Numbered from the stretch's first letter, positions 4,305 through 30,000 are shown. The stretch: DNA of 30,000 nt from Sutterella seckii (GCF_009183815.1 NZ_WEHX01000011.1:1-30000); one strand, 5' to 3'. Notes: generated by a model from the letters alone, not told the origin. Numbers and translations: made by a program.

Positions 4305-4379
4305 CAGACGATCCCGGAAGCATTCCGGTTTCAGGAGAGAAAAGAATCGGTACTTATTTGCTCGGAGCGGCGCTCCCGC

Positions 4380-7968: not shown

Positions 7969-7987
7969 TCTACTTCAGTGAGACGCC

Positions 7988-8916: not shown

Positions 8917-8943
8917 GATGTTTTTCTCCTGCGATGCGCTGGA

Positions 8944-11194: not shown

Positions 11195-12442
11195 ATGAGT
11201 CAATCACCAGCCGGGCCGTCGAAAGGCACGTCCTTCATGCTCGCAGCGATAGGCATTTACCTGAGCTACTTCCTGCACGGCGCGAGCGTCATCGCGCTTG
11301 CGCAGAACATGACTTCTCTTGCCGAGAAGTTCGCCACCGACAGCGCAGGCATCGCCTACCTGATTTCGGGCATCGGCCTCGGCCGCCTCGTCACGATCCT
11401 CTTCTTCGGCGCGCTCTCGGACAAGTTCGGCCGCCGCGCGATGATTCTCCTCGGAATCATCCTCTACATGATCTTCTTCTTCGGGATCCCCTACAGCCCC
11501 AACCTGATGGTCGCCTTCTGCCTCGCCTTTGCGGTGGGCGCAGCCAACTCCGCGATCGACACGGGCGGCTATCCGGCCCTGATTGAATGCTTCCCGAAGG
11601 CCTCGAGCTCGGCCGTGATTCTGCTCAAAGCCATGGTTTCCTTCGGCCAGATGCTCTATCCGATGGCGGTGAGCTTCCTCATGGTCTCGAGCCTCTGGTA
11701 CGGCTACGCCTTCATTGTGCCCGGCATCATCTTCGTCCTCATCACGCTTCTCGTCCTCAAGTGCCGCTTCCCGAGCCAGGCCGTCGACGCCGCGGTCCTC
11801 AAGGATCTGCCGCAGATGCGCCAGCAGCCCTCCTACTGGGGCGAAGGCCTCATGGCCGTGATCTTCGGCGTCGCCGCATTCTCGACCTTCTACGTGATTG
11901 CCGTCTGGATGCCGCGCTACGCCATGGCCTTCGGCGGGATGTCGGAATCGGAATCCCTCACGACGATCTCCTACTACAGCATCGGTTCGCTCGTCTGCGT
12001 CTTCGCTTTCGCCTACCTCCTGAAGTCGAAGGTCCGTCCGGTCTGGGCAATGGTTCTCAACAGCCTCATCGCCTGCATCGCCTCGCTCGTTCTCTTCCTC
12101 TACCCGACGCCGCTCATCTGCAAGGCGGGCGCCTTCCTGATCGGCTTCTCCGCCGCGGGCGGCATCCTGCAGCTCGGCGTTGCGGTGATGGCTGAGTTCT
12201 TCCCGAAGAGCAAGGCGAAGGTGACCTCGGTCTACATGATGATGGGAGGCCTCGCAAACTTCGTGATCCCGCTCGCCACCGGCTACCTCTCGCAGATCAG
12301 CATCAAGTACATCATCCTCCTCGATTTTGGCCTGGCTGTTCTCACGCTCCTCACGTCGCTCTACCTCTTCCGCCGCTACTACGCGATCTTCTCGATCCCG
12401 GCGAAGGACGTCCGCTTCGGCGAAGCGCGCTTCATCAAATAA
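11195..12442 (+). CDS. ydiN: YdiN-like MFS transporter
   Basis: 415 aa with GGAG 8 nt upstream of the ATG. Long runs match remembered E. coli YdiN: 'YFLHG.SVI.LAQNM.SLAEKF.TD.AGIAYLISGIGLGRL', 'GGYPAL.ECFPKAS.SAVIL.KAMVSFGQM', 'FGVAAFSTFYVI.VWMP.YAMAF.GMSE', 'GFSAAGGILQLGV.VM.EFFPKSKAKVTS.YMMMGGLANFVIPL.TGYLS'. Confidence 0.9.
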   Translation: MSQSPAGPSKGTSFMLAAIGIYLSYFLHGASVIALAQNMTSLAEKFATDSAGIAYLISGIGLGRLVTILFFGALSDKFGRRAMILLGIILYMIFFFGIPYSPNLMVAFCLAFAVGAANSAIDTGGYPALIECFPKASSSAVILLKAMVSFGQMLYPMAVSFLMVSSLWYGYAFIVPGIIFVLITLLVLKCRFPSQAVDAAVLKDLPQMRQQPSYWGEGLMAVIFGVAAFSTFYVIAVWMPRYAMAFGGMSESESLTTISYYSIGSLVCVFAFAYLLKSKVRPVWAMVLNSLIACIASLVLFLYPTPLICKAGAFLIGFSAAGGILQLGVAVMAEFFPKSKAKVTSVYMMMGGLANFVIPLATGYLSQISIKYIILLDFGLAVLTLLTSLYLFRRYYAIFSIPAKDVRFGEARFIK

Positions 12443-12615
12443 ACCGTTTTCCTTAATCAACCCAACAGGCTTTTGCGGAAAGAGAGGGGAACCTTCCCCG
12501 CTCTTCCCCGGGAGCCAGAAATCCCCGGGCGCTCCGCCTCCTCGACCCGATTCCAGGGGCCGGACACCCGATCTCCAAATCTTCCGCATTTCCTAGATAT
12601 TTGAAGGAGTCAAAA

Positions 12616-13479
12616 ATGGAAGTCACCGCTAAGTACGAGCTCATCGGCCTCATGGCTTACCCGATCCGTCACAGCCTCTCGCCGACGATGCAGAACCGCG
12701 CTCTCGACAAGCTCGGCCTTCCCTACTGCTACATGGCCTTCGAGGTCGACAACGCCTCCTTCCCGGATGCCATCAAGGGCCTTCGCGCTCTGAAGATGCG
12801 CGGCTCGGGCGTCTCGATGCCGAACAAGCAGCTCGCCATCCAGTTCATGGACGAACTCGCCCCGGCCGCCAAGCTCGCCGGCGCCATCAACACGATCGTG
12901 AACGACAACGGCTACCTGAAGGGCTACAACACCGACGGCACGGGCCACATCCGCGCCATTAAGGAAACCGGCTTCGACGTCAAGGGCAAGACCATGGTCC
13001 TCGTCGGTGCGGGCGGCGCCGCCACCGCCATCGGCGCCCAGGCTGCCGTTGAAGGCTTCAAGGAAATCAAGCTCTTCAACCGCAAGGACGAATTCTGGGA
13101 AGGCGCCCACGCCTTTACGAAGCGCGTGAACGACAACTCCGACTGCCGCGTCACGGTCTGCGACCTCGACGATGAGAAGCTCTTCGGCGACGCCATCGCC
13201 GGCGCCGACGTTCTCACGAACGCCACCAAGGTCGGCATGAAGCCGCTCCACGAGCTCTCCGTCATCAAGGACGTCTCGATGCTCCGCCCGGACCTCCTCG
13301 TTTCCGAATGCGTCTACAACCCGCACATCACGAAGCTCCTCGAGCAGGCTCAGGCTGCGGGCTGCAAGACCGTCGACGGCTACGGCATGCTCCTCTGGCA
13401 GGGCTATGAACAGTTCAAGCTCTGGACCGGCGAAGACTTCCCGATCGAATACATCCGCGAATCGATGGGCTTCAAGTAA
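12616..13479 (+). CDS. ydiB: Quinate/shikimate dehydrogenase (NAD(P)-dependent), YdiB type
   Basis: ORF 12601..13479 trimmed to the ATG at 12616, which has GAAGGAG at 12603-12609. 287 aa. Matching runs: '[21 protein letters not shown]', '[10 protein letters not shown]', '[27 protein letters not shown]', 'GKTMVL.GAGGA.TAIGAQ', 'ECVYNPH.TKLL', '[19 protein letters not shown]'. These are nearly collinear with remembered E. coli YdiB. Confidence 0.92.
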
Positions 13480-13587
13480 TCCGCCGACTCTCCTGCCGGG
13501 CGGCAACTTCTCCAGCTCCGCCCGGCGGGGAGCGCGGTTTCCCGCCAAGCATCGTATTCTTAGTTTCTCCTCTCTCCGGATTCAGAA

Positions 13588-14346
13588 ATGCAGACTGTTC
13601 AGATTAAAAACGTTACCCTGGGCGAAGGCGCCCCGAAGATCATCGTCTCCCTGATGGCGAAGGACATTGCCGCCGTCAAGAGCGAAGCCCTCGCCTACCG
13701 CTCCGCCGACTTCGACATCCTCGAATGGCGCGGCGACCACTTCACGGCCATCGCCGACACGGCCGCGGCGCTTGACGCCCTGCGCGAACTCCGCGCGGTC
13801 TTCCCCGACAAGCCCATCCTCTTCACGTTCCGCAGCAAGAAGGAAGGCGGCGAACAGGAAATCGCTCCCGAAGCCTACATTGCGCTCAACATCGCCATGG
13901 CTGAAAGCGGCCTCGTCGACGCGATCGACCTCGAGCTCTTCACGGGCGACGCCCTCGTCTCCCAGACCATCGCCCGCGCGCATGCGAAGGGCGTGAAGGT
14001 CATCATGTCGAACCACGACTTCCACAAGACCCCGGCGAAGGAAGAGATCGTCAAGCGCCTCACGAAGATGCAGGAACTCGGCGCCGACGTGCCCAAGATC
14101 GCGCTCATGCCCGAATCCAAGGCCGACGTCCTCACGGTTCTCGCCGCCACCCTCGAAGTTTCCGAGAAGATTGCCGACCGTCCGATCATCACGATGTCGA
14201 TGTCTAAGACCGGCGTCATCTCCCGCCTCGCCGGCGAAGTCTTCGGTTCCGCCGCCACCTTCGGCGCCGTCCAGAAGGCCTCCGCCCCCGGCCAGATCTC
14301 CGTGACCGACCTCCGCACGGTCCTCTCGATCATTCACGCGGCTTAA
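13588..14346 (+). CDS. aroD: 3-dehydroquinate dehydratase, type I (cytoplasmic)
   Basis: 252 aa. Matching runs: '[14 protein letters not shown]', 'ADFDILEWR', 'FTFRS.KEGGEQ', 'IDLELFTGD', 'SNHDFHKTP' (catalytic His), 'PKIALMP' (Schiff-base Lys), '[46 protein letters not shown]'. There is no signal peptide. Confidence 0.93.
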
Positions 14347-14599
14347 TTTCAGCCCGCCCCGCGCTCCCCGGCGTTCTTGTCGCCGGGACGCGGACCGCGC
14401 CCGCAGGAGGGAAGTTCTTCCCCGCGGGCCCGCCTGATCGATTTTTGAAAACCTCCAGCACTCTGCAGCGCCCTCAAAAGCGCCGCAGCCGGGTCCCCTC
14501 GCGCCCGAAAAAGGCCGGGACGGATCCGAACACCCAAAATTTTCGAGCAAAGCGTCCGCAGGGTTCTCCCGGTGCGGGCAGCTCAATCCGGAGAATTCC

Positions 14600-16192
14600 A
14601 TGCAGATTGCAAAACCCAAGCGCATCAACGGCCGCGTGCCCGTCATGTCCGCCGAAGAGGCCGTGACCTACATTCCTGATGAAGCCACGCTCTGCGTTCT
14701 CGGCGCCGGCGGCGGCATTCTTGAAGCGACGAAGCTCATCGAAGCCCTCGCCGAACGCTACAAGACCACGCAGACCCCGAAGAACCTCGGCATCATCAGC
14801 CCGACGGGCCTCGGCGACCGCGCCGAGCGCGGCATCAGCCCGATCGCTCAGGAAGGCCTCGTCAAGTGGGCGCTCTGCGGCCACTGGGGACAGTCGCCCC
14901 GCATTTCCGAGCTCGCCGAGCAGAACAAGATCTCTGCCTGGAACTATCCGCAGGGCGTCCTCACGCAGATGCTCCGCGCATCGGCCGCCCACCAACCCGG
15001 CATCATCTCGGAAATCGGCCTCGGCACCTTCGTCGATCCGCGCAACCAGGGCGGCAAATTGAACGACGTGACGAAGGAAGACCTGATCAAGCTCGTCAAC
15101 ATCGAAGACAAGGAATACCTCTACTACAAGTCGGTTCCGCCCAATGTCGCCTTCATCCGCGCCACGACCTGCGACAGCGAAGGCTATGCGACCTTTGAGG
15201 ACGAGGTGATGTACCTCGACGCCCTCGTCATCGCCGAAGCCGTTCACAACAACGGCGGCATCGTGATGATGCAGGTTCAGAAGATGGTGAAGAAGGCGAT
15301 CCTTCATCCGAAGAACGTCCGCATCCCGGGCTACCTCGTCGACATCGTCGTCGTCGACCCGCAGCAGACGCAGCTCTACGGCGGCGCGCCGGTGAACCGC
15401 TTCATCTCGGGCGACTTCACGCTCGACGATTCCGAACGCGTCAAGATTCCGCTCAACCAGCGCAAGGTCGTCGCCCGCCGCGCTCTCTATGAAATGAAGA
15501 AGCAGGCGATCGGCAACGTCGGCGTCGGCATTGCCGACGGCATCGGCCTCGTCGCCCGCGAGGAAGGCTGCGACGAAGACTTCGTCCTCACCGTTGAGAC
15601 GGGCCCGATCGGCGGCATCACGACGCAGGGCGTCGCCTTCGGCGCGAACGTCAACACCCGCGCCATTCTCGACATGACCGCGCAGTTCGACTTCTACCAC
15701 GGCGGCGGCCTCGACGTCTGCTACCTCTCCTTTGCCGAAGTCGACAAGGAAGGCAACGTCAACGTCCACAAGTTCAACGGCAAGATCATGGGCACGGGCG
15801 GCTTCATCGACATCAGCGCCACCTCGAAGAAGATCGTCTTCTGCGGCACGCTCACCGCGGGCGGCCTCAGGACCGAAGTCGGCGACGGCAAGCTCACGAT
15901 CACCCAGGAAGGGCGCGTCACGAAGTTCGTCGACCATCTCCCGGAAATCACGTTCTCGGGCAAGGTCGCCCTCGAACGCGGCCTCGACGTCCGCTACGTC
16001 ACCGAACGCGCGGTCTTCACGCTCAAGGCTGACGGCCTCCACCTCGTCGAAGTTGCTCCGGGCGTCGACATCGAGCGCGACATCGTCGCGAAGATGGGCT
16101 TCAAGCCCGTGATCGACAAGAATCTGAAGCAAATGGACGCCTGCATCTTCACCGATGCCGTCATGGGCTTCAAGCTCCCCGACGCTGAATAA
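14600..16192 (+). CDS. ydiF: Family I acyl-CoA:carboxylate CoA-transferase (fused alpha/beta), YdiF type
   Basis: 530 aa with GGAG 7 nt upstream. Runs match remembered E. coli YdiF: 'RINGRVPV', 'IPDEATLCVLGAGGGILEAT', 'GLVKWALCGHWGQSPRIS', 'TTCDSEGYATFEDEVMYLDALVIA', 'VHNNGGIVMMQVQKMVKKA', 'FNGKIMGTGGFIDISATSKKI.FCGTLTAG'. Confidence 0.93.
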   Translation: MQIAKPKRINGRVPVMSAEEAVTYIPDEATLCVLGAGGGILEATKLIEALAERYKTTQTPKNLGIISPTGLGDRAERGISPIAQEGLVKWALCGHWGQSPRISELAEQNKISAWNYPQGVLTQMLRASAAHQPGIISEIGLGTFVDPRNQGGKLNDVTKEDLIKLVNIEDKEYLYYKSVPPNVAFIRATTCDSEGYATFEDEVMYLDALVIAEAVHNNGGIVMMQVQKMVKKAILHPKNVRIPGYLVDIVVVDPQQTQLYGGAPVNRFISGDFTLDDSERVKIPLNQRKVVARRALYEMKKQAIGNVGVGIADGIGLVAREEGCDEDFVLTVETGPIGGITTQGVAFGANVNTRAILDMTAQFDFYHGGGLDVCYLSFAEVDKEGNVNVHKFNGKIMGTGGFIDISATSKKIVFCGTLTAGGLRTEVGDGKLTITQEGRVTKFVDHLPEITFSGKVALERGLDVRYVTERAVFTLKADGLHLVEVAPGVDIERDIVAKMGFKPVIDKNLKQMDACIFTDAVMGFKLPDAE

Positions 16193-16239
16193 CCCCTTTC
16201 CAAATTCCCAAACCTTTCCCACTTCAAGGAAAAGAGAAA

Positions 16240-17394
16240 ATGGCTATCGATTTTTCGCTCACCGAAGAGCAGGAGCTGCTCCTTGCCTCCATCCGCGAAC
16301 TCATCACGACCGAGTTCCCTGAAGAGTACTGGCGCACCCACGACGAAACGAGCACCTACCCGCGCGAATTCATGAAGGCGCTCGCCGAAAACGGCATCTC
16401 GATGCTCGGCGTCCCTGAAGAATTCGGCGGCATCCCCGCCGACTACGTGACGCAGATGCTCGCCCTCATGGAAGTCGCCAAGTGCGGCGCCCCGGCGTTC
16501 CTCCTCACGAACGGCCAGTGCATCCACTCGATGCTCCGCTTCGGCTCGCCCGAGCAGCTGAAGAAAACCGCTGAAAGCACGGCTGCCACGGGCGACCCCG
16601 CCTACTCGCTCGCCCTCACGGAACCGGGCGCCGGCAGCGACAGCAACGCCACCGCCACGACCTTCACGCGCCGCGACGGCAAGATCTACCTCAACGGCCA
16701 GAAGACCTTCATCACGGGCGCTGCCGAATATCCGTACATGCTCGTCATCGCCCGCGATCCCGAGCAGCAGGATCCGAAGAAGGCCTTCTCCCTCTTCTGG
16801 GTCGACGCGAAGAAGCCCGGCATCAAGGTGAATCCCCTTCACAAGATCGGCTGGCACCTCGTGAGCACCTGCGAGGTGTACCTCGACAACGTCGAGGTTG
16901 AGGAATCCGACATGGTGGGCGAGGAAGGCAAAGGCTTCCTCAACGTCATGTACAACTTCGAAATGGAGCGCCTCATCAACGCCGCCCGCTGCACGGGCTT
17001 TGCGGAATGCGCCTTCGAGGACGCCGCCCGCTACGCCAACCAGCGCATCGCGTTCGGTCAGCCGATCGGCTTCAACCAGATGATCCAGGAAAAGCTCGCC
17101 CTCATGGCCGTCAAGTGCAAGAACATGCGCAACATGGTTCTGCAGACTGCCTGGCAGGCGGACCGCAAGGAGTCGCTGCGCGTGACGTCGTCGCTCGCGA
17201 AGCTCTACTGCGCCCGCACGGCGCTTGAAGTGATCGACGATGCGATCCAGATCATGGGCGGCCTCGGCTACACGAACGACGCCCGCGTCTCCCGCCTCTG
17301 GCGCGACGTCCGCTGCGAACGCATCGGCGGCGGCACGGACGAAATCATGATCTACATCGCCGGCCGTCAGATCCTGAAGGCCTACCGCGAATAA
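16240..17394 (+). CDS. ydiO: Acyl-CoA dehydrogenase family protein (putative enoyl-CoA reductase), YdiO type
   Basis: 384 aa. Matching runs: 'DFSLTEEQELLLASIRELITT', 'GISMLGVPEEFGGIPADYVTQMLALMEV', 'LTEPGAGSD', 'FLNVMYNFEMERLINAAR', 'RCERIGGGTDEIMIY'. The protein is CaiA-like overall. Confidence 0.93.
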   Translation: MAIDFSLTEEQELLLASIRELITTEFPEEYWRTHDETSTYPREFMKALAENGISMLGVPEEFGGIPADYVTQMLALMEVAKCGAPAFLLTNGQCIHSMLRFGSPEQLKKTAESTAATGDPAYSLALTEPGAGSDSNATATTFTRRDGKIYLNGQKTFITGAAEYPYMLVIARDPEQQDPKKAFSLFWVDAKKPGIKVNPLHKIGWHLVSTCEVYLDNVEVEESDMVGEEGKGFLNVMYNFEMERLINAARCTGFAECAFEDAARYANQRIAFGQPIGFNQMIQEKLALMAVKCKNMRNMVLQTAWQADRKESLRVTSSLAKLYCARTALEVIDDAIQIMGGLGYTNDARVSRLWRDVRCERIGGGTDEIMIYIAGRQILKAYRE

Positions 17395-17429
17395 TCCTGA
17401 TGTTCTGAACCTTCAGAACTGCGCTTTGC

Positions 17430-17468
17430 GCTCCGGAATCGTCCTGACAACGGTTCCGGAGCGTTTTT
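17430..17468 (+). terminator. Rho-independent terminator after ydiO
   Basis: Stem gctccggaa (17430-17438) pairs with ttccggagc (17454-17462) and is followed by gTTTTT (17463-17468). Confidence 0.6.
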
Positions 17469-17660
17469 CATTTAGGAAGCGGCAGTATTGACAGATTCCG
17501 GACTTCAGTTCGACACTGAGCTCTAAAGTAAATTCCTTAATCCGGAATAACTATTTCCATTTCTAAATGCAACTTCAGGGTTTTTACCAGTATTCAGACG
17601 GTAAGATGTCTTCATTCGTTCTTTGTCGAACATTTCCCCATTTTTGAAGGTTCATCCGCA

Positions 17661-18077
17661 ATGTCCCGTCTTTTCACGAACTCCGCCCTTTCCACCTCCT
17701 TCGGCCTCCTCTTTCTCCGCATCGCGCTTGCAGGGAGCCTCCTCACGCACGGCATCGCCAAAATCGAGAATTTCTCGGCGCTATCCAACTCCTTCCCGGA
17801 TCCCTTCGGGACGGAGCATCTGACAGCGCTTCTTCTTGCCATCTTCGCCGAAGTCGTCTGCTCGATCTTCGTCCTCATCGGTCTCTGGACGCGCGCCGCG
17901 CTCATTCCGCTCATCTGCACCTTCCTCACGATTGCCTTCGTGGTGCTCGCCGGAAAGGACTTCGGCGCTCGCGAAATGCCGCTCCTCTATCTCTTCGGCT
18001 TCGCGACGCTCTTCTTCACGGGCGCGGGCAGCTTCTCGCTCTCTGGGCTCACCAGGGCTGCTGCCAGGAAAGCCTGA
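17661..18077 (+). CDS. DoxX-family integral membrane protein
   Basis: 138 aa with four hydrophobic segments. The N-terminal 'FGLLFLRIALAGSLLTHGIAK' is typical of DoxX/DoxD-like proteins. Confidence 0.75.
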   Translation: MSRLFTNSALSTSFGLLFLRIALAGSLLTHGIAKIENFSALSNSFPDPFGTEHLTALLLAIFAEVVCSIFVLIGLWTRAALIPLICTFLTIAFVVLAGKDFGAREMPLLYLFGFATLFFTGAGSFSLSGLTRAAARKA

Positions 18078-20614: not shown

Positions 20615-22765
20615 ATGCAGTTTCGCAAAGCGCTCACTGCCGCCACGGCCGCCGTAGCCATCATTCCCATCGTCGTGCTTGCCGCCTTCGAGTGGCGGAA
20701 CGTCCTCAGCGAAATGGATGCGCTCGAAAAGAGGCAGAGAATGACGGCCGAGCGCATTGCAGAAGCGATCAATGCGAGACTCTCCTCTGCTCTCGAACTC
20801 ATGCTCCTCGCAGCCTCGGAACTGCCGGAACTATCCTCTGCCGAAGCAAGAAACAGGACTCTTGCCCATATCGCCCGCGCCGAGCCGGCGTTTCTCAATC
20901 TGCATTTCGACACGCCCGAAGGCATCTCAAGCGGCTTCCATCCGCTTCTCAATCCGGCGGGCGTTCCCAACAACGGCGTTGATCACCGCGGGCGCAGGCA
21001 CTGGAAGGAACGGCGAACCGATGCGCCTTACTGGATCTCAGCGAGCTTTGAGGCAACCGGCGCTGCCGATGAACGCATCGTCAACATCGGCGCTCAGGCG
21101 AGAACCCGGTCCGGTGAACTGGCCGGCTTCGCCGTCTGCGCGCTCGACCTCAAGAAGTTTGCTGCGATCGCCGCTGAGTACGAAAATCCCGGCGACGCAA
21201 TCTGGATTACCGACAGTAAAGGCGGAATTCTCTATGCTTCCCGCGGGATTGAGGCAGCGCCCATCAGTGCTTTTGAGGCGCTCATTCCGGAGGGAAGCCC
21301 GACCGCTCCCGGACCGATTCCATTCAAGGCCTCTCAGGGCCAGAAAGTCCTCGAGGGGTGGTTTGCCGAAACCGGCCTCAGCGGAGACTGGCGCGTGATG
21401 GCTGCCAAACCCAATGCGCTCCGCCAGATGGAACTCACCGGAATTGTTCTCCGGAGCCTCTTCCTCATTCTCTTTGTTCTTGGAGCCTCCGGTTTAGCGG
21501 GCATGCTAGCCCGACGACCGATTGAAAAGGCGCTCTTCAAGCTTCAAAGCCAGGTAGCGGCGGCGAGACCCGAGCCGCTCCCTGACGAGCGCATACATTC
21601 GCTCTCCGAGTTCGAAGCGCTTCAGGCTGAATTCGGCCGCCTGATGAAGCGGCTCTCCATCGCCCGCGAGGAAATCGAGTCGGTCAACCGCCATCTCGCC
21701 GACGAAGTCGCCCGACAGACACAAGCGCTCCGAACCCAGATGGAAATGCTCTCCAGAATTTTTGAGAGCCTTGCTGACGGGCTTCTTCTGCTCGACCAGG
21801 AGGGCGCCATTGTCTGGGCCAATCAACGCGCGGAGCGCCTCTTCACAGCATCCGCTTCCGGAAAGATCCTCGGCTCAGCTGCCGGAACGCTTTTTGCCCA
21901 ATGCCTGCAGTCGGGCAATGCGTCTCCTGCCCCGGAGGCCGTGCTCTCCGGCGGCACGCACCGGTTTCAGCTCAGATCCTCTTCCGGCGAACGGTTTCTC
22001 GACGTAACGGCCTTTCCCATTGAGGGAGGCGACCGCTTCGCACGCGGCATTCTCCTTCATGACGCTACGGACGCCGCCAGAATGGAAAGCCTCAAAGAGA
22101 ATCTCATCGGCGTTGTGGCGCATGAGCTCAAAACGCCGCTCGCGGCCATTGCGCTCTCAGCAGAAACGCTGGCCCGTCAGGATGCCGGCTGGAGCGAAGA
22201 ATTCCAGAACGATCTTCTTCAGGGAATGCGCCGGGAAGTCGGGGCGCTCCAGCAGCTGATTTCCGACTGGCTCGATGTGGCGCGCATTGACGGCGGCACC
22301 TTCATCATTCAAAAGCGGATCGTGCAGCTGAAGCCCATCATCCTGCGCGCGCAGAAGCGCGTCCGGGCGCTCGGACCGGCTCAGATCCGAATCACGATTG
22401 AGCCGGACGCAGAGTGCGTCAACGTTGACCCGGACCGGTTCCTCCAGCTTCTCACAAATCTCCTCTCAAACAGCGTCCGCTACCGGGCCCTGGAGCGCGA
22501 GTGCATCATTGACGTTCATGCGGAAAAGAAGCACTCCGAGCTTCTCCTCTCCGTCACTGACAACGGCATCGGCATTCCCGAAGGCGAGGAAAGGAGAATC
22601 TTCGACCGCTTTTATCAGGTCAACATGGGAATGCGCCGAAGAAGCGGCGGCACCGGTCTCGGCCTCGTCATTTCGCTTGCGATCGTTCGCGCTCACGGCG
22701 GAACGATTGAAGTCGCGAGCACGCCCGGCGTCGGCAGCACGTTCACTGTCAGAATTCCCTATTGA
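20615..22765 (+). CDS. Sensor histidine kinase (TM, periplasmic Cache-like domain, TM, HAMP/coiled-coil, PAS, HisKA, HATPase)
   Basis: 716 aa. TM1 is 'AATAAVAIIPIVVLAAF', followed by a periplasmic segment of about 250 aa. TM2 is 'GIVLRSLFLILFVLGASGLAGML'. PAS is 'IFESLADGLLLLDQEGAIVWANQRAERLF'. The H-box is 'VAHELKTPL'. The N/G boxes are 'LLSNSVRY', 'DNGIGIP' and 'GGTGLGLVISLAIVRAHGG'. Confidence 0.9.
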   Translation: MQFRKALTAATAAVAIIPIVVLAAFEWRNVLSEMDALEKRQRMTAERIAEAINARLSSALELMLLAASELPELSSAEARNRTLAHIARAEPAFLNLHFDTPEGISSGFHPLLNPAGVPNNGVDHRGRRHWKERRTDAPYWISASFEATGAADERIVNIGAQARTRSGELAGFAVCALDLKKFAAIAAEYENPGDAIWITDSKGGILYASRGIEAAPISAFEALIPEGSPTAPGPIPFKASQGQKVLEGWFAETGLSGDWRVMAAKPNALRQMELTGIVLRSLFLILFVLGASGLAGMLARRPIEKALFKLQSQVAAARPEPLPDERIHSLSEFEALQAEFGRLMKRLSIAREEIESVNRHLADEVARQTQALRTQMEMLSRIFESLADGLLLLDQEGAIVWANQRAERLFTASASGKILGSAAGTLFAQCLQSGNASPAPEAVLSGGTHRFQLRSSSGERFLDVTAFPIEGGDRFARGILLHDATDAARMESLKENLIGVVAHELKTPLAAIALSAETLARQDAGWSEEFQNDLLQGMRREVGALQQLISDWLDVARIDGGTFIIQKRIVQLKPIILRAQKRVRALGPAQIRITIEPDAECVNVDPDRFLQLLTNLLSNSVRYRALERECIIDVHAEKKHSELLLSVTDNGIGIPEGEERRIFDRFYQVNMGMRRRSGGTGLGLVISLAIVRAHGGTIEVASTPGVGSTFTVRIPY

Positions 22766-23557
22766 ATGGATTCACGCCCATCCTCCCTGCCGCATTTCTC
22801 AAAATCAGCCATGACAACTTCCAGTCCCGACGCCGCCCGCCCGCTCATTCTCATCATCGACGACGAAAGCAGAATCCGCCGTCTCGTCGCAGCGAATCTC
22901 GAAACGCTCGGCTACGACACGGCCCAGGCCGCTGACGGCGAAATCGGGTTTGACATCTGGAAGCGCCTTGAACCGAAGCCGCAGCTCATCGTGCTCGACC
23001 TGATGATGCCCGGCATGGACGGCTTCGCCTTCCTTCAGAAGATTCGGGAGGAAAGCGAGGTGCCCGTCATTCTGCTCACGGCCCGTTCGGAACTCTCCGA
23101 CAAAACCAAATGCCTGAGCGCCGGTGCCGACGACTACCTTGTGAAGCCCTTTGCCATGGAGGAGCTTGCCGCGCGCATTGCGGCAGTATTGAGAAGAACT
23201 TCCGTCAGGGCCTCTGCGGCGGCAGGTGCGCCCCGCGCGGAAGAATTCGTCAACGGTCCGCTCATCCTGGTCCCGGAAAAACGCGAATGCCGGTGGGGAG
23301 CCGCTCCTATACGGCTTTCCGACACGGAATTCCGGCTCCTTCTGGCGCTCGTGAAGCACCCGGGCGCCGTCATTGCGCATGACGCCCTGATCCGGGAGGT
23401 CTGGGGCGCCGAACACCTCGGCGAACTTTCGCTCCTTCGCGTCGCCTTCGCCCGCATCCGCCGAAAACTCTCGGAAGCCGGCGCCGACGGCTCCGTCATC
23501 TCTTCCTACTCCGGCGTGGGCTACGTCATCACCGACCTCTCGGAATCCTTTGATTGA
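22766..23557 (+). CDS. OmpR/PhoB-family response regulator
   Basis: REC domain motifs are 'LILIIDDE', 'DLMMPGMDG', 'ILLTAR' and 'GADDYLVKPF'. Winged-helix motifs are 'LSDTEFRLLLALVKHPG', 'LRVAFARIRRKL' and 'GVGYVI'. The ATG at 22766 abuts the kinase stop (TGAATG), which suggests translational coupling. The ATG at 22811 is an alternative start that gives a shorter N-terminus. Confidence 0.85.
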   Translation: MDSRPSSLPHFSKSAMTTSSPDAARPLILIIDDESRIRRLVAANLETLGYDTAQAADGEIGFDIWKRLEPKPQLIVLDLMMPGMDGFAFLQKIREESEVPVILLTARSELSDKTKCLSAGADDYLVKPFAMEELAARIAAVLRRTSVRASAAAGAPRAEEFVNGPLILVPEKRECRWGAAPIRLSDTEFRLLLALVKHPGAVIAHDALIREVWGAEHLGELSLLRVAFARIRRKLSEAGADGSVISSYSGVGYVITDLSESFD

Positions 23558-23681: not shown

Positions 23682-25219
23682 ATGAACCGCAGTCCCGCCG
23701 CCAGTTTCTTACCCGTTCCGCCGGAGCCGCTCTCGGCGCCGCCGCTCTCGCGCCTTTTGCCGCGCAATCCGCGCACGCCGCGCCGGCCGACCGCAAATGG
23801 GATGAAGAAGTCGACGTGATCGTGGTCGGCACGGGCATCGCCGGGACGATTGCCGCCATTGCCGCAGCTGAAAAAGGCTCCAAAGTCCTGATGCTCGAGA
23901 AAATGTCCTTCCCCGGCGGCACGTCTCTCGTGTCCGGTCTCGACTTTGCCTGCGTCGGCTCTCCGCTTCAGAAGGAAAAAGGCGTCAAGGACGCTCCCGA
24001 ACTCCTCGCCGGCGACATGGCGAAGGTTTCGGGCGGCTTCGGAAGCTATGAACGCGCTCTCCTGATGGCAAAGACCACCGCCCGCGTGGAATCTTTCCTC
24101 ACCGCTCACGGCGTCAAGTGGGACGGGCGTCTCCTCAAGCTCGGCGGCCACAGCGTTGCGCGCGGCCTTTCCGCACAAGGGGGCGGCGCCGGCATGCTTT
24201 CCGCGCTCTGGAACTGGATGAAGGCGCATTCAGACATTCAGATCCGCACGAAGTGCCGCGCCGAGGAAGTGCTTTTCAATGAAAAGGGTGAAGCCTCCGG
24301 CCTCCGGGTTCGCGAAGGCTATGTGTTCTCGCGCAATGCAGACGACGACTGGGCGAATGCAACCGGCGTCATGAAGACGATCCGCGCCCGCCAGGCGGTG
24401 GTTTTCGCAACCGGCGGCTATGCCCAGGACAAGGCCTTCCGCTCGTCCGAGGTTCCCTTCCTCGCGGGCGTTGTATCGACCACCAATGCGGGCGCCACGG
24501 CCGGTTCCCTGAAGACGCTCGAAGCGGCCGGCGCTCAGGCCGTGCAGCTTTCGCTTTTCCGCTTTGCCTATCCGCTCCCGACCGAAGACATGATCTGGGG
24601 CATGCTCATTGACCCGGCCACCGGACGCCGCTTCATGAGCGAAGGCGAAACGCGCAATACGCTCGCGAGCGCCGTCCTTCAGCATCGTCTGCGCAACGGG
24701 GACCGCAAGCCCTTCATCGTCTGGGACGAAAAGGCGCTCAAAAAATTCCACAACATGAAGCGTCTCGAGCAGAGTCTTGCCGACAAGAACGGCATCGACG
24801 GCGCGATTCTCAAATTCGCATCGCTCGATGAACTTGCGAAGCACTACAGCACCGACGGCAAGGCGCTCCAGGAAAGCCTCGTCAAGTACAACGAGCTGAT
24901 TGCCGGCGGCAGGGACACGGAGTTCAATAAGCCCATGGAGCGCTCCGGGCGCAAGGTGGAGCCGCTTTCCGCGGAAGGCCCCTTCTACACGATGGTCGTG
25001 ACGCCCCGCCTCAACTACACGCCGGGCGGCATCCGCACCAATGAAAAGGCTCAGGCAATCCGCCTTCGCGACGGCGCGCCGATTCCGAGACTCTATGTTG
25101 CGGGCGAAGCTTCGGGCGGCCTTCACGGGCAGGAGCGCCTCACGGCCTGCTCCATGCCGGACTGCTCATCCTTCGGCCTGATTGCAGGGGAAAACGCGGC
25201 TGCTGAAACGCGCATCTGA
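23682..25219 (+). pseudogene. Tat-signal FAD-dependent flavin reductase (flavocytochrome-c fumarate-reductase / FAD_binding_2 family); the start codon and signal peptide are separated from the body by a 1-nt frameshift
   Basis: ORF 23816..25219 begins at a GTG inside the GxGxxG fold 'DVIVVGTGIAGT'. It contains 'LEKMSFPGGTS', 'ATGGYA' and 'RLYVAGEASGGLHGQERL'. The same frame upstream (23660-23815) has no start codon but encodes a twin-arginine signal, 'SRRQFLTRSAGAALGAAALAPFAAQSAHA/AP'. The only good start is the ATG at 23682 (GGAG about 8 nt upstream), which is one base out of frame. Adding one C to the CCC run at 23694-23696 gives 'MNRSPRRQFL...'. Confidence 0.75.
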
Positions 25220-25299
25220 GCGACTGCCGGTTACGTCCCCACAAGAAAACGTCCGCTTCTTCCTCACGCCTGGAGCCTGAGGGAGAAACGGCCGGCGTG

Positions 25300-25349
25300 A
25301 AGCCTCTTCCAGGACAACTCTGCCATTCCTGGAAGAGGCTTTTTTTTTA
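25300..25349 (+). terminator. Rho-independent terminator after the Tat flavin reductase gene
   Basis: A perfect 15-bp stem (25300-25314 aagcctcttccagga pairing with 25327-25341 tcctggaagaggctt) encloses a 12-nt loop. The run of 8 T at 25341-25348 begins with the last stem base. Confidence 0.85.
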
Positions 25350-25507
25350 TCTGCCATCTCATCCAGATCAGCCGCTCAGAGAGCGACAAAATGTGCAATA
25401 GTCCGACATTGTTGACATTCAGGAGGCCGGACGGGCCTTTTATCATGGAAGCTTCAGCCGTCAAAATTCTCGAAAATCCCAAGCGTCTTCGTTAGATTCG
25501 CGATCAG

Positions 25508-26773
25508 ATGGTCGTGCGCGACGTATCGCTCGACAGCGACGACACGGTTTATCCCGCGCTTACCGCGCTGATTGCCCGGACGCTCGAAGAGACCGGACTC
25601 GTAGAAGACATGGCCCAGGCGCTCGGATACAACCCGGCGCTCACGCTCCATCTCCTCAATGCCGCTGTCGGCTCGACCGCCTCCTCTCTCCTCACGGAGA
25701 GCTTCAGACGGAAGGACCTCTCCGACCTCACCGACCGGGCCGTCGTCTCGCGTCCGAGCAAGCTTTTCGGTTCGGGTGCTCTGAGCGAAATGGAGATGAA
25801 CGACCTCTTCCGCGAAATCAGCCGTAGCCCCAACCTCCTCCCGCGCTTCAACGTTGCCCGCATCCGGCGCTCGGGCGCGAAGCGCCTCGCCGTTTCCATC
25901 GGCATGGAACCGATCGTCCGCTGCAGCCCGAGCTTCGCGAAATCTTCGATTTCCATTTTGGACTTCACTGAGCCCTATGACCCCAGGATTCTGGGCGGCT
26001 TCCCGTCGAAAGCAAATTATCCGGACTGTGCCAAGGCGGCGTTCGAAGCCGTTCAATGCCTCCTTGACCGCACGGGCGCCCTGAAGGAAGGCTACGACGT
26101 CACCGTAGTCGACTGGATTACCTCGCTTTCCGACTTCCGGTCGCTTGCCAAGCTCGAAAAGAAAGGCTTCAAGTTCTTTGCTCAATCGATCATCGATCTT
26201 GAACCTGCTGAAGGAATCGCCCGGAAGCTCGTGAAAAAGGATGCGGACGATAATCCGGAATGGAAGAAGACGGGCAGCTCCGCTGAAACCATTTCCGGTC
26301 TGGAACTCCCTCGTTTTGAGAAACCGGTCTCGGCCGTGTTTCTGCATGAAAAATCCTATGAAGACGCAGCGGCCGAAGACCTCGAATGGATACTGAACGA
26401 CGGGGGCCTCACGCAGGAAGAATTTCAAAAGAAAAGAGAAATCTGCGGCTTCCAGGCGTTCTTTACCAACAATGCCGGGCTCGATCTCATGAATGTCGAG
26501 GGAATCTGGTACCAGAACTTCGACGCGATCCCGCATGATGCAAAGACCATCGCCGACTGCATGGACGCTTACAACGGCACCAGCTTTGAGGGCGCTTCGC
26601 CTCAGGGACGGTTCTTCATGACGTACGTCGTCATCGCGGTCATTGACGCGCTGTACGCGAAATATCTGAAGAAGGTCGGCGTCGACGACGAATACGACGA
26701 GATTGACGGCTACCCGGACAACTTCATCGCCTCGCTTGTGAGGCTCCAGACGCTCGGCGTCGTGCAGGACTAG
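25508..26773 (+). CDS. Hypothetical protein; weak by-eye resemblance to IS4/IS1634-family DDE transposases, possibly a degenerate remnant
   Basis: 421-aa ORF with protein-like composition and a GC-rich third codon position, unlike the Arg-rich antisense ORF 25454..26962. Loose transposase-like landmarks are 'ILDFTEPY...GFPSKANYPDC', 'VTVVDWITS...KKGFKFFAQ' and 'IWYQNFDAIPHDAK...FFMTYVVIAVIDALYAKYL'. The frame continues upstream to an ATG at 25391, apart from one in-frame TAG at 25493-25495. I found no terminal inverted repeats. The family call is low confidence. Confidence 0.45.
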   Translation: MVVRDVSLDSDDTVYPALTALIARTLEETGLVEDMAQALGYNPALTLHLLNAAVGSTASSLLTESFRRKDLSDLTDRAVVSRPSKLFGSGALSEMEMNDLFREISRSPNLLPRFNVARIRRSGAKRLAVSIGMEPIVRCSPSFAKSSISILDFTEPYDPRILGGFPSKANYPDCAKAAFEAVQCLLDRTGALKEGYDVTVVDWITSLSDFRSLAKLEKKGFKFFAQSIIDLEPAEGIARKLVKKDADDNPEWKKTGSSAETISGLELPRFEKPVSAVFLHEKSYEDAAAEDLEWILNDGGLTQEEFQKKREICGFQAFFTNNAGLDLMNVEGIWYQNFDAIPHDAKTIADCMDAYNGTSFEGASPQGRFFMTYVVIAVIDALYAKYLKKVGVDDEYDEIDGYPDNFIASLVRLQTLGVVQD

Positions 26774-27000
26774 GGTGCAGCCGAAATGCGCTTTGCCGCG
26801 CCCGAGCATGAACTTCAGGCGTGCCGCGATGCCGCCCGCGGAGGACCTCCTCGAGTCGGCGCAGAAGGCCTGGGACGGGACCTCCGTCAATCCGGTGCTC
26901 GCACGCATCCGCGCTGCATCGAAGTCGTAAGTTCGCGAAAGCGCCCTTCCGCTTTCCATCATCCGGAGCAGGAATCCGCAGCCTGATTCCCGCCCAATAA

Positions 27001-27035
27001 AGAGCCGCCGGGACCCTGAAAGTTCCGGCGGCTCT
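27001..27035 (-). terminator. Probable terminator hairpin downstream of the FMN/FAD reductase gene
   Basis: An 11-bp stem, agagccgccgg (27001-27011) pairing with ccggcggctct (27025-27035). On the minus strand it is followed by TTATTGGG. A second GC hairpin, ggcggcgc...gcgccgcc, lies at about 27052-27077. Confidence 0.5.
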
Positions 27036-27112
27036 CTTTCGCTTCATCCCCGGCGGCGCTCCAGACGCTGCGCCGCCTTAGGAAAGAAACGATCGGTTAA
27101 GACCCAGGGAAA

Positions 27113-28912
27113 TTACTTCCCGGCCTTGATGGCTTCCGCGATGCTGTCGGCAGCAACGCGGCCCGACGTAAGGGCCCAGCCCACGTTGGCGCCGGCAGGC
27201 GAGTCGTCGCCCATCACGCCGCCCACGATTTCACCCGCACCGTAGAGGTTCGGGATGACCGAACCGTCCTTCTTCACGAGGTTGAGCTTGTCGTCCGTGC
27301 AGACGCCGCCCATCGTGGTCGCAAAGCGCGGCTTCTGCTCGACGATGTAGTAGGGGCCTTCGGCCGAAATTTCAGCCTTCATGTACTGAACCGGACGGTC
27401 GAAGTCCGCATCCTTCTTGGCCTTGACGAACCCGTTGTACTTGGCAACGGTCGCCTTCAGGTTTTCGGCATTGATGCCCGCCAATTTCGCGACGCCTTCG
27501 ATCGTATCGGCCTTCACGAAGAGCGGCGGGGTCTTGCCGCCGTTGGCGAGATACTTGTCGGCATCCTCATGCGAAACGCCCGTTTCGGGGAGGCGCTTGT
27601 AGAAGCCTTCCCAGGACTTCTGGTCCATGAAGACGTAGGCCTGGCCGTTGGGGTTCTTGAGCATCGGCTCGAGAATGTGGCGGTTCGACGCCTTTTCATT
27701 CACGAAACGGACGCCATTCACGTTGACGAGAATGCCCGCCTGGTCAAAGGCGCCGACATTGGCGTAAATCGTGGACTTGGCCTTGCCCGGAGCGACTTCG
27801 ATGCCGTTCGGATAGCGCTTGCCGTACTGGAGGAGCTGGGTCTTGACGCCCAACTTCTCGGCCATCTGGAGGCCGTCGCCCGTCGAGGAAACCGGACCGT
27901 AGTAGAGGACCTTCTGCATTTCGGGCGTGAGGAGCGACTTGTTGTTGCCGTAGCCGCCCGTCGTGAGAAGGGTCTTCTTCGCCTTGATGGTGTAGGTCGT
28001 GCCGCTGTTGAGGTCCACAGCCTTCACGCCCGTGACCTTGCCGTCCTCGACGATGAGGTCTTCAACGCGGGTGTTGTAGAAGACCTTGGCGCCGTTCTGG
28101 GCGATCACTTCGCGCAGGTGCTGCGCCATGGTGCCCGCGCCCCCCTGGAATTCAAGCGCGCGGCGGTGCGAATACTCGGCGAGGTAGGGAAGATCGTTCG
28201 GAATGAACTTGACGCCCACCTTTTCATTCAACCAGTCGATCGTGGGGCCGACGTTCTTTGCGTAGAGCGTGAGCTTCGAGAGATCGTTCTTGCCGGCGCC
28301 GTTCTTCAGGAAGTCCTTCACCATCGAATCGACGGAGTCGTCCTTGGAGCCGAAGGCCTTCTGGAGCTTCGAACCCTGGGCGACGACCTGGCCGCCCGAA
28401 ATCGAAGCCGCACCGCCGATGAAGGGCATCTTCTCGACGAGGATCACGTTGAGGCCGTTCATGCGGCTGCGGATGGTCGCAGACATGCCCGCGCCGCCGC
28501 CGCCCACGATGACGACGTCAGTGGCGAGGTCTTCGTTTTTGGCAACTTTCTTAAGCACCACCGGAACGAGCGCTTCCGGATCGGCGCCCGCCTGCTTCAC
28601 GCAGTCGGCAACGGCCTTCCTGATGGCGTCCGAAGTAATCGTGGCGCCCGAGACCCCGTCAACCTTCGGCGACTGGGCGTCGACGATCTTCTGCGGGAGC
28701 TGGTCGACGGCGAGCGTGCCGATGCCCTGGGTTTCGGTCTGCTTCACGACCTTGACGGCGGAAATCTTGTCGGCCGTGAAGGTCACTTCAACGGTGACGG
28801 CGCCGTGAATGCCGGGGGCGGAAGCCGTGTAGGTTCCCGCCTTGAAGGTGGCGGCGGAAGCGGCGGTCGCAAAGAGCGCGGCAACCGCAAGAGCAGCAAA
28901 AGTCTTCTTCAT
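27113..28912 (-). CDS. Exported FMN_bind + FAD_binding_2 flavin reductase (UrdA / fumarate-reductase-like, probably covalently FMN-modified)
   Basis: 599 aa with Sec signal 'MKKTFAALAVAALFATAASA/A'. The FMN_bind domain carries the ApbE flavinylation motif 'DGVSGATITS' (SGAT at 28640-28651). The FAD fold is 'VVIVGGGGAGMSA', with C-terminal 'NLYGAGEIVGGVMG'. GAGGAA lies about 9 nt upstream of the ATG. Confidence 0.9.
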   Translation of the reverse strand: MKKTFAALAVAALFATAASAATFKAGTYTASAPGIHGAVTVEVTFTADKISAVKVVKQTETQGIGTLAVDQLPQKIVDAQSPKVDGVSGATITSDAIRKAVADCVKQAGADPEALVPVVLKKVAKNEDLATDVVIVGGGGAGMSATIRSRMNGLNVILVEKMPFIGGAASISGGQVVAQGSKLQKAFGSKDDSVDSMVKDFLKNGAGKNDLSKLTLYAKNVGPTIDWLNEKVGVKFIPNDLPYLAEYSHRRALEFQGGAGTMAQHLREVIAQNGAKVFYNTRVEDLIVEDGKVTGVKAVDLNSGTTYTIKAKKTLLTTGGYGNNKSLLTPEMQKVLYYGPVSSTGDGLQMAEKLGVKTQLLQYGKRYPNGIEVAPGKAKSTIYANVGAFDQAGILVNVNGVRFVNEKASNRHILEPMLKNPNGQAYVFMDQKSWEGFYKRLPETGVSHEDADKYLANGGKTPPLFVKADTIEGVAKLAGINAENLKATVAKYNGFVKAKKDADFDRPVQYMKAEISAEGPYYIVEQKPRFATTMGGVCTDDKLNLVKKDGSVIPNLYGAGEIVGGVMGDDSPAGANVGWALTSGRVAADSIAEAIKAGK

Positions 28913-28991
28913 GGGTGAAATTCCTCGTGGAATCAGTCAATCAAAAAACAAATTTATTCTAGGCAATCATTGAGCATGAGACGCATCCGCA

Positions 28992-29912
28992 TTACGGATT
29001 CATCGCGCGATGGAGCGTTTCGAGCACCGAGAGGCATTCCTCGGCCGGAATCTGGCCGGGCGCGCTCGCCTTTCCGCCCACGGACGCAAAGGTGAGGTCG
29101 GAGCCGAAGCCTTCCCCCGTAATGCGCGTAAGCACGCCCCACTTTCCCATCGCCATCGTGAGCATCGGACGGTCGCTGTAGTAGTGGCGCATCTTCGCGG
29201 TCGCGGTCATCACGGTGAGCGCGTCTTCAGGCGAGAACGCCATGACGGCGAGCTTCAGAATGTCGGCGCCGAATTCCTGCTCGAGGAGGAGCCTCCTGAT
29301 GATTTCGCCTTCATCAGGCGTGAACTTGAATTCATGGGCGCTGATGATGACTTTGATGCCTTTGGCGTGCGCCGCCTTGACGAGGGAGCGGATCATGTCC
29401 GCATCGCGGAAGAGCTCAAGGTCAATGATGTCGGCTTTGCCGGACTCAATGACGGCGCGGTAAACCTCGCCGTAGTACTTGTCTTCGGCAATGAAGGGGC
29501 CGCCGTCGGTGCCGTTTCTGAGCGTGACGAGGACGATCTTGTCGCCCGCCGCCTGATAGGCCTTCCGGGTCACCTCGGCAAACTCAGCCGGAGCGAGTTT
29601 TCCGAGATAATCGATGCGGACCTCGACCATGTCGAGGGCCTTCATGCCGGCAAACTTCTCGAGCGTCTGATAGAGGTCGGCAGCATTCTTGCTCGTCGTC
29701 GGGGCGATCAGCTTCGGGCGCCCTTCGCCGATCCGGCGGCCCTTGACCTCGAGGGGCTTCACGGCGCCGACGCCCCAGCCGGGAGCGCGGTTTTCCGTAT
29801 CGATCGGGCGCATCTTCTCGCCGAAATGGTCCGAAACGCTCGCTTCCGCAACCGGAACCACAACCGCTGCAGCGGCTCCGAGCGCGGAACCGAACAGATG
29901 ACGACGCTGCAT
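28992..29912 (-). CDS. Exported type I 3-dehydroquinate dehydratase paralogue (AroD-like with a twin-arginine-type signal peptide)
   Basis: ORF 28992..29960(-) trimmed to the ATG at 29910-29912, which has AAGGAAAGGAGA upstream. The N-terminus 'MQRRHLFGSALGAAAAVVVPVAEA/S' has an RR-x-[LF][LF] motif, a hydrophobic core and an AxA cleavage site. The mature part aligns with aroD at 13588-14346: 'IDLELF', 'SAHEFKFTP', 'ILKLAVM', '[41 protein letters not shown]'. Confidence 0.85.
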   Translation of the reverse strand: MQRRHLFGSALGAAAAVVVPVAEASVSDHFGEKMRPIDTENRAPGWGVGAVKPLEVKGRRIGEGRPKLIAPTTSKNAADLYQTLEKFAGMKALDMVEVRIDYLGKLAPAEFAEVTRKAYQAAGDKIVLVTLRNGTDGGPFIAEDKYYGEVYRAVIESGKADIIDLELFRDADMIRSLVKAAHAKGIKVIISAHEFKFTPDEGEIIRRLLLEQEFGADILKLAVMAFSPEDALTVMTATAKMRHYYSDRPMLTMAMGKWGVLTRITGEGFGSDLTFASVGGKASAPGQIPAEECLSVLETLHRAMNP

Positions 29913-30000
29913 TCTCAATCTCCTTTCCTTTGATTTTTCGTGCCGTCGCCGGACATTCAAGGCCGGTCTGAAGCCTTTGAATCTTTTGCCCGGGACATGC

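Follow-up and report, generated by a model that had tools for sequence, protein, structure and literature searches.

The first 30,000 nucleotides of the Sutterella seckii contig NZ_WEHX01000011.1 (assembly GCF_009183815.1; this whole stretch is referred to as the window) carry on their minus strand two adjacent genes, here called aroDx and flavR. The first encodes a paralogue of the type I 3-dehydroquinate dehydratase (dehydroquinase) of the shikimate pathway which is predicted to be exported, and the second encodes a flavoprotein reductase with a secretion signal of its own. We propose, and give this proposal an even chance of being correct, that the locus constitutes the distal half of a substrate-induced periplasmic respiratory module of the Sutterellaceae for hydroaromatic acids of the quinate/shikimate family. 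The module is the best current gene candidate for the respiration of quinate/shikimate-type acids in these bacteria.

The window comes from a species of Sutterella. Its AroDx shares 95-100% identity with the counterparts on contigs of uncultured Sutterella, 76% with that of S. wadsworthensis DSM 14016 and 72% with that of S. parvirubra. The distant members of the family (~50% identity) are annotated as Parasutterella and Turicimonas muris. The comparison of gene neighbourhoods below is based on 101 loci encoding AroDx with a twin-arginine translocation (Tat) signal. These were obtained by scanning genomes once and metagenomes once, supplemented by targeted look-ups, and fall into 15 lineages, defined as clusters at 90% AroDx identity.

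AroDx and its export signal

The gene and the parts of its product discussed here are located as follows (aa, amino acids; HMM, hidden Markov model).
28992..29912, minus strand: aroDx, type I 3-dehydroquinate dehydratase paralogue of 306 aa, predicted to be exported (HMMs, alignment, AlphaFold model)
29841..29912, minus strand: Tat signal peptide (residues 1-24) of AroDx, with cleavage predicted behind AEA (TatP regular expression, family alignment)
29757..29840, minus strand: extension of ~28 residues (25-52) at the N-terminus of mature AroDx, specific to the family (family alignment)
29334..29336, minus strand: codon of His193, the catalytic histidine, corresponding to Salmonella H143 (alignment to solved AroD structures)
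29253..29255, minus strand: codon of Lys220, the Schiff-base lysine, corresponding to Salmonella K170 (alignment to solved AroD structures)

The aroDx reading frame starts with an ATG that has an AGGAG 7 nt upstream. An earlier note on this DNA had described the open reading frame (ORF) as AroD-like with type I hallmarks, and the 306-aa translation indeed contains all of the motifs quoted there. The protein scores above the cutoffs of both models applied, with 190 bits against Pfam DHquinase_I (PF01487; cutoff 22) and 188 bits against the NCBIfam aroD equivalog-domain model TIGR01093 (cutoff 139). The mature protein was modelled with AlphaFold at a mean predicted local distance difference test (pLDDT) score of 92. 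The model displays the (beta/alpha)8 fold of AroD; it superimposes on Salmonella AroD (3m7w) with a template modelling (TM) score of 0.96 and a root-mean-square deviation of 1.3 A. The positions of Lys220 and His193 are invariant in 48/48 aligned sequences. The residues that bind the substrate are likewise retained, with E97, R99, R132, R263, S283 and Q287 corresponding to E46, R48, R82, R213, S232 and Q236 of the Salmonella enzyme, and the equivalents of Salmonella M205 and F225 are also conserved. HMM score, active-site residues and modelled fold thus all indicate that AroDx is an intact type I dehydroquinase.

A number of positions close to the active site are nevertheless characteristic of the family. 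Salmonella Glu86, the acidic partner of the histidine, is replaced by Asp136 in the window; this position is Asp in 30/41 family members and Glu in 11/41, Asp being the residue of the Sutterella branch and Glu that of the Parasutterella branch, so that the acidic character is kept, with a shorter side chain in the Asp form. Residue 192 (29337-29339, minus strand), which directly precedes the catalytic histidine, is Asn in cytoplasmic enzymes and Asp in 39/41 members of the family; in the window it is Ala, and on the near-identical contig L003 it is Asp. Further family-specific changes near the active site are Asn142 to Asp, Asp144 to Glu, Lys147 to Phe or Trp and Ala222 to Asp, and the lid loop carries a one-residue insertion ahead of the ASAPGQ motif.

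The N-terminus of AroDx reads MQRRHLFGSALGAAAAVVVPVAEA, followed by S at the predicted cleavage point, and fits the TatP regular expression RR.[FGAVML][LITMVF] through RRHLF, with an A-x-A cleavage site behind the hydrophobic region. The same expression is matched by 37 of the 42 full-length family members. R3-R4 and A24 at position -1 are invariant in two family alignments (32/32 and 41/41), and the sequence of the hydrophobic region drifts with its hydrophobicity kept (Kyte-Doolittle (KD) value of the hydrophobic window, 2.3). Fixed arginines and a fixed cleavage site around a variable core are the pattern expected of a working signal peptide, which supports the view, already put forward in the earlier note, that AroDx is exported through Tat. 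The signal is followed by an extension with the motif P36-x-D38-x-x-N41-x3-G45-W46, which is invariant or nearly so among the proteins with Tat signals and which, in the alignment, is not present in cytoplasmic or Sec-type dehydroquinases; confidence of the AlphaFold model is low in this part (pLDDT 49-77). In sum, AroDx resembles AroD of E. coli and Salmonella (3m7w, 1qfe) in fold, catalytic Lys and His and substrate-binding residues, and differs from these cytoplasmic, biosynthetic enzymes in its Tat signal, the ~28-residue extension, the Asp for Glu86 in the Sutterella branch and the link of its gene to those of respiratory flavoproteins.

Type I dehydroquinases with Sec-type signals form a separate clade, found in Stenotrophomonas rhizophila, Pantoea and Erwinia (L011, L012 7001-7912, L013 7001-7885). 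Their genes belong to a conserved cluster that comprises UbiD, UbiX, DUF554 and a NosD-like protein, with an OprB porin in Stenotrophomonas, and may represent another extracytoplasmic hydroaromatic pathway.

FlavR and the structure of the operon

The features of flavR and its flanks are the following.
28913..28991, minus strand: intergenic spacer between aroDx and flavR, 79 nt, with GAGGAA before the flavR ATG (sequence read)
27113..28912, minus strand: flavR, exported FMN_bind + FAD_binding_2 flavoprotein reductase of 599 aa (Pfam, signal, orthology)
28853..28912, minus strand: Sec-type signal peptide of FlavR, residues 1-20, cleavage between ASA and A (sequence features)
28640..28642, minus strand: Thr91 codon, within the DGVSGAT motif of the FMN_bind domain, predicted to be the site of flavinylation by ApbE (motif)
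27001..27076, minus strand: two GC-rich hairpins 3' of flavR, one with a 14-bp stem at 27001-27035

FlavR corresponds in every respect to what had been noted before, that is, a 599-aa protein encoded 79 nt downstream on the same strand, with a Sec signal, an FMN_bind domain containing SGAT and a domain binding flavin adenine dinucleotide (FAD). Its signal peptide, MKKTFAALAVAALFATAASA followed by A, has a strong hydrophobic core and no RR motif, a pattern shared by every orthologue examined. The FMN_bind domain (PF04205; FMN, flavin mononucleotide) covers residues 34-106 with 64 bits, and FAD_binding_2 (PF00890) covers residues 132-568 with 195 bits. The [ST]GA[ST] motif is conserved across all flavR orthologues, and from established knowledge of ApbE targets we take Thr91 to be the residue that is flavinylated. 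A terminator-like site was sought in the 79-nt spacer and none was predicted; we infer that aroDx and flavR are probably co-transcribed. The hairpins 3' of flavR, which fall inside the stretch common to sister strains (26984-30000), probably mark the end of the operon.

The nearest solved structures are those of UrdA (6t85; E 4e-50) and flavocytochrome c3 (Fcc3; E 5e-49), and FlavR reaches 267 bits against TIGR01813, under the cutoff of 285. The designation as UrdA-like holds for the domain architecture, as FlavR shares with UrdA and Fcc3 (6t85, 1qjd) the exported arrangement of an FMN_bind (or haem) domain with a FAD_binding_2 catalytic domain, but not for the active site, since His504, Arg545 and the proton-donor Arg of those enzymes are not conserved. 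At the position of Fcc3 His504/His505 FlavR has Ala-Thr, and in place of the Arg545 motif HGxNRLGG it has MGDDSPAGAN, which contains no Arg. The position of the proton donor (Fcc3 Arg402, UrdA Arg411) lies in N-R-H in Sutterella and in N-H-N or N-N-A in orthologues of the Parasutterella group. Fcc3 His365 is a Tyr, as in UrdA. These non-canonical features are kept within the flavR orthologue group, and, with clamp and arginine absent, the chemistry of FlavR cannot be read from homology. Below the thresholds of NCBIfam, FlavR shows similarity to desaturases of cyclohexanone rings, namely those of 3-ketosteroids and of 4-oxocyclohexanecarboxylate.

Conservation of the gene pair

A survey of genomes for the co-occurrence of signal-peptide AroD with FMN_bind reductases had been suggested in the earlier note, and its outcome strongly favours a link between the two genes. 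Enough sequence for an adjacency call was available at 84 of the 101 loci, where a flavR orthologue was counted if it was at least 45% identical and started no more than 700 nt downstream on the same strand. Such an orthologue, with 50-99% identity, stands directly downstream of aroDx at 70 of these loci. The pairing therefore recurs in 11 of the 15 lineages, which is far beyond chance: Sutterella genomes contain 33-51 flavin reductase genes each, and with about 35-60 reductases among roughly 2,500 genes a random reductase neighbour would be expected in about 2% of cases, and not the same orthologue each time. AroDx and FlavR also diverge in step, to ~50% identity each in the Parasutterella/Turicimonas group.

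The gene set persists despite a shuffled order between lineages. In the species of the window the order is kinase-regulator-FAD-aroDx-flavR; in S. wadsworthensis, whose orthologous operon occupies L004 3826-10820, the kinase, regulator and FAD genes are divergent from aroDx-flavR; in the Parasutterella-like group it is aroDx-flavR-(TIM barrel)-kinase-regulator-FAD, the additional genes being those described in the next section.

AroDx occurs without a neighbouring flavR orthologue in three lineages, L001/L002/L059, L020 and the L021 group. In L007, kinase, regulator and the short FAD protein are kept and flavR is replaced by a cytochrome c3 and another FAD protein. As separate observations at individual loci, the aroDx gene of L020 is adjoined by genes for an aromatic ammonia-lyase, a cytochrome c3 and a Tat FAD_binding_2 protein (2224-5977), a cluster that matches the exported lyase and flavocytochrome clusters reported for Shewanella, Sutterella and Turicimonas; on the 2.7-Mb contig L023 (5160-6401), the position immediately upstream of aroDx-flavR, normally that of the kinase, regulator and short FAD genes, is taken by a group II intron reverse transcriptase (RVT_1 + GIIM) and a HipA toxin pair.

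Further genes of the module

The pair had initially been regarded as a two-gene unit, a description that has turned out to be too narrow, as a sensor kinase, a regulator and a second Tat FAD protein belong to the module as well, joined in part of the lineages by a QuiC-like TIM barrel that is Tat-exported. The window ends just upstream of aroDx, and the region beyond base 30000 was read from same-species contigs (L014, L015, L017-L019 and L025; ~95% DNA identity). There, the kinase, regulator and FAD protein genes are located directly upstream of aroDx on the same strand, and these three usually accompany the aroDx-flavR pair. The histidine kinase has a periplasmic solute-binding (Phosphonate-bd) sensor, and its best NCBIfam match, at 145 bits and below cutoff, is TtrS, the sensor of tetrathionate respiration. 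The regulator is a LuxR/GerE response regulator. The FAD_binding_2 protein comprises 489 aa in L014, has a twin-arginine signal and lacks an FMN_bind domain; it keeps the equivalents of the His504 and Arg545 clamp, whereas FlavR keeps neither.

L003/L028 (96% nucleotide identity) was also considered as an upstream extension and was rejected, as homology breaks at window base 29774 and the 5' end of aroDx is absent. On this contig of a metagenome-assembled genome, aroDx lacks the signal peptide and runs into unrelated sequence around 8046, which is probably due to an assembly chimera or a rearrangement.

At seven Parasutterella-like loci (L081, L084, L085, L087, L093, L094 and L096), a gene for a Tat-exported AP_endonuc_2 TIM barrel lies between flavR and the kinase gene, and such a protein is encoded nearby in L007 and L010. 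The sole NCBIfam match of these proteins is QuiC, a 3-dehydroshikimate dehydratase; the matches are weak (E 1e-9 and 4e-6) and far below cutoff, and may be taken as a hint to the class of substrate, not as an assignment. Most Sutterella loci, that of this strain among them, lack the gene.

Proposed role and alternative explanations

Two published systems provide a frame for the function of the module. S. wadsworthensis and Eggerthella lenta have been reported to reduce the enoate shikimate to hydroshikimate, with a formate-dependent stimulation of growth (Little et al., bioRxiv 10.1101/2022.12.26.521950). According to the available text of that preprint, RNA sequencing covered only E. lenta and H. 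filiformis, and a shikimate-induced reductase was identified only in E. lenta, so that no Sutterella gene is tied to shikimate there. S. wadsworthensis belongs to the same bacterial family as the source of the window; unlike in our module, no dehydroquinase partner is mentioned in the text available. In Shewanella oneidensis, exported trimethylammonia-lyases supply the flavocytochromes of their own operons (SO_3056-3058 and SO_3299-3301) with thiourocanate or methyl-urocanate, and similar clusters have been noted in Sutterella and Turicimonas (bioRxiv 10.64898/2026.04.22.720169). There, an exported lyase turns a compound that is not an acceptor into an alpha,beta-unsaturated acid, which the FAD_binding_2 reductase of the same operon uses as terminal acceptor, and we propose the same logic here: the window encodes a dehydratase and an FAD_binding_2 reductase, both with export signals, on one strand, with a 79-nt gap and conserved linkage. 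The two arrangements differ in the enzyme (MIO-type ammonia-lyase, PF00221, MIO being 4-methylideneimidazole-5-one, versus Schiff-base dehydratase, PF01487), in electron entry (multihaem cytochrome versus FMN_bind) and in the presumed substrate, which here would be a carbocyclic hydroaromatic acid. The statement that no dehydratase-plus-flavin-reductase pair of this kind has been characterised has to be qualified by the lyase and flavocytochrome pairs of Shewanella. Our literature search found no description of an exported type I dehydroquinase or of an aroDx-flavR pair. The same search yielded no gene for a 3-dehydroshikimate or shikimate reductase in Sutterella. Acetic acid bacteria, to which the system had also been compared, similarly convert 3-dehydroquinate to 3-dehydroshikimate outside the cytoplasm, by way of a quinate dehydrogenase dependent on pyrroloquinoline quinone and a 3-dehydroquinate dehydratase. 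This parallel is loose, however, since their pathway is aerobic and oxidative and has no flavin reductase partner, and the dehydratase studied in Gluconobacter is of type II (aroQ), in contrast to the type I enzyme AroDx.

We hypothesize that AroDx leaves the cytoplasm in a folded state through Tat and, in the periplasm, converts 3-dehydroquinate to 3-dehydroshikimate via the Lys220 Schiff base. The dehydration would turn a ring that is unable to take electrons into a conjugated enone/enoate with a reducible C=C bond. FlavR, exported through Sec and flavinylated on Thr91, would receive electrons from the quinol pool via its FMN domain and would reduce at its FAD site the ring C=C bond of 3-dehydroshikimate, of shikimate or of both. 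The second Tat FAD protein might take the other of these two acceptors or carry out a following step, and the TtrS-like kinase with its periplasmic solute-binding sensor would, together with the LuxR-type regulator, induce the operon in the presence of the acceptor. Both the TtrS-like sensor and the shikimate respiration reported for S. wadsworthensis are in keeping with a respiratory function that involves a ring of the shikimate type.

Several observations weigh against this proposal. Shikimate reduction needs no dehydratase, so that the published phenotype alone does not explain AroDx, and the proposal requires a supply of 3-dehydroquinate in the periplasm for which no gut source is established. 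FlavR is devoid of both the carboxylate clamp and the proton-donor Arg of fumarate and urocanate reductases, and the AroDx of the window carries Ala192 beside the catalytic His, where the family has Asp. An adjacent flavR is missing in 4 of the 15 AroDx lineages, and a flavR orthologue also occurs without adjacent AroDx (L024). We had considered that the missing clamp of FlavR might reflect activation through the ketone of 3-dehydroshikimate instead of the carboxylate of shikimate. This idea was dropped: clades of cinnamate reductases lacking both arginines still reduce enoates, as stated in the available text of Little et al. (bioRxiv 10.1101/2022.12.26.521950), and no conclusion on the substrate can therefore be drawn from the difference in the clamp between FlavR and the short FAD protein.

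It is very unlikely that AroDx is simply a biosynthetic dehydroquinase with an odd N-terminus which by chance came to lie beside one of many reductase genes. Some other dehydroquinase must serve biosynthesis in the sister strains that lack the aroD of the ydi island (see below), and with that many reductase genes per genome chance neighbours do occur; against this, all aligned family members keep the two arginines and the A-x-A site around a hydrophobic core of changing sequence, and the same reductase orthologue is adjacent in most lineages despite rearrangements, where ~2% would be expected by chance. AroDx might also have been recruited for another beta-hydroxy-ketone, in which case the module would respire a compound unrelated to the shikimate pathway. 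The family-specific changes near the active site, the lid-loop insertion and the conserved N-terminal extension would be in line with such a shift, and sequence is a poor predictor of substrates in the flavin reductase superfamily. We nevertheless consider this improbable, as AroDx retains all the residues through which Salmonella AroD is known to contact 3-dehydroquinate, and its score lies above the curated equivalog-domain cutoff.

Two further explanations retain the hydroaromatic substrates and differ from our proposal in the chemistry. In a stepwise reductive dehydroxylation, alternating dehydrations and C=C reductions would strip the ring of its hydroxyl groups, with two electrons consumed per cycle; the dehydrations would be carried out by AroDx and, in some lineages, by the Tat-exported QuiC/IolE-like TIM barrel, and the reductions by the two flavoproteins on rings derived from quinate or shikimate. 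The presence in one module of two exported flavoproteins with different active-site make-up, the Tat-exported AP_endonuc_2 protein with its weak QuiC match inside the operon at seven loci, and the sub-threshold similarity of FlavR to cyclohexanone-ring desaturases are all compatible with a cascade. The only product reported for S. wadsworthensis, hydroshikimate, requires a single reduction, though, the TIM-barrel gene is missing in most Sutterella loci, this strain included, and no intermediate of such a cascade has been seen, and we thus regard this explanation as unlikely. Its most elaborate form, in which two dehydratases of different folds and two flavoproteins repeatedly dehydrate and then reduce dietary quinate and shikimate with energy gained at each reduction, appears distinctly unlikely; if true, the cascade would supply the microbial link that is missing between quinate or shikimate and the reduced ring acids from which the host forms hippurate. 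Alternatively, the flavoproteins might act in the opposite direction, as dehydrogenases similar to KstD or ChcC which together with AroDx aromatise hydroaromatic acids in the periplasm, from 3-dehydroquinate via 3-dehydroshikimate to protocatechuate or gallate, and feed the electron chain. The FAD_binding_2 family does include ring desaturases, as seen in the NCBIfam matches, and a QuiC-like protein is nearby in some lineages. An oxidative role seems quite improbable, however, given that in Sutterella these enzymes operate in the reductive direction, with electrons donated by formate, that the FMN_bind + FAD proteins characterised so far are reductases, and that a TtrS-like sensor suits the sensing of an acceptor.

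Neighbouring genes in the window

A second locus with quinate/shikimate genes, the ydi island, occupies window positions 2195-17773 (genes at ~2554-17394, the quinate/shikimate part at ~4380-17394). It comprises genes for a major facilitator superfamily (MFS) transporter, a fadK-like adenosine monophosphate (AMP)-ligase, an electron-transfer flavoprotein (ETF)-quinone oxidoreductase (ETF-QO)-like protein and ETF alpha and beta, followed by ydiN-ydiB-aroD-ydiF-ydiO, with the AMP-ligase and ETF genes on the strand opposite to the ydiN-ydiO genes. The canonical aroD at 13588-14346 (plus strand), pointed out in the earlier note, is real and scores 246 bits. Positions 12601-16400 match E. coli ydiN-ydiB-aroD-ydiF-ydiO in gene order, with a nucleotide identity of 69%. 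The island is missing in sister contigs with differing boundaries, as window positions 2195-17773 are absent from L014 and 996-18007 from L017, and is strain-variable and probably horizontally acquired. The locus had been thought to strengthen the assignment of the substrate; as the sister strains that lack this E. coli-like island keep the aroDx module, it lends little support to it. Within the island, two adjoining ORFs of 190 aa and 200 aa at 2554-3772 (minus strand), each of which matches MFS_1, look like pieces of a single transporter gene that a frameshift or stop codon has interrupted.

Two differently regulated reductase operons converge tail to tail in this part of the genome. Facing flavR, a second two-component system, consisting of a PAS kinase and an OmpR-type regulator (20615-23557, plus strand), precedes a Tat-signal FAD_binding_2 gene (23682-25219, plus strand), which encodes 512 aa in sister strains. 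In the window, a one-base deletion (CCC to CC) after ATG AAC places the start codon and the Tat signal out of frame, so that the open frame begins only at GTG 23816; the gene has either become a pseudogene or been misread in sequencing. A strain-specific insertion of 1,764 bp (25220-26983), absent from five sister-strain contigs, separates the converging 3' ends of this gene and flavR. No clear terminal repeats of the insertion were found, and its 421-aa orphan ORF (25508-26773, plus strand) had no match in Pfam, NCBIfam, PHROGs or PADLOC.

Implications

Quinate and shikimate are abundant dietary plant acids, the processing of which by gut bacteria is poorly mapped at the gene level. If the proposed role of the module is correct, the enzymes known to serve anaerobic respiration would come to include an exported member of the shikimate pathway, and the principle of an exported lyase that makes the acceptor would extend from ammonia-lyases to dehydratases. 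The aroDx-flavR pair would then provide a marker for this metabolism in metagenomes, and FlavR and its orthologues would define a clade of flavin reductases with a non-canonical active site.

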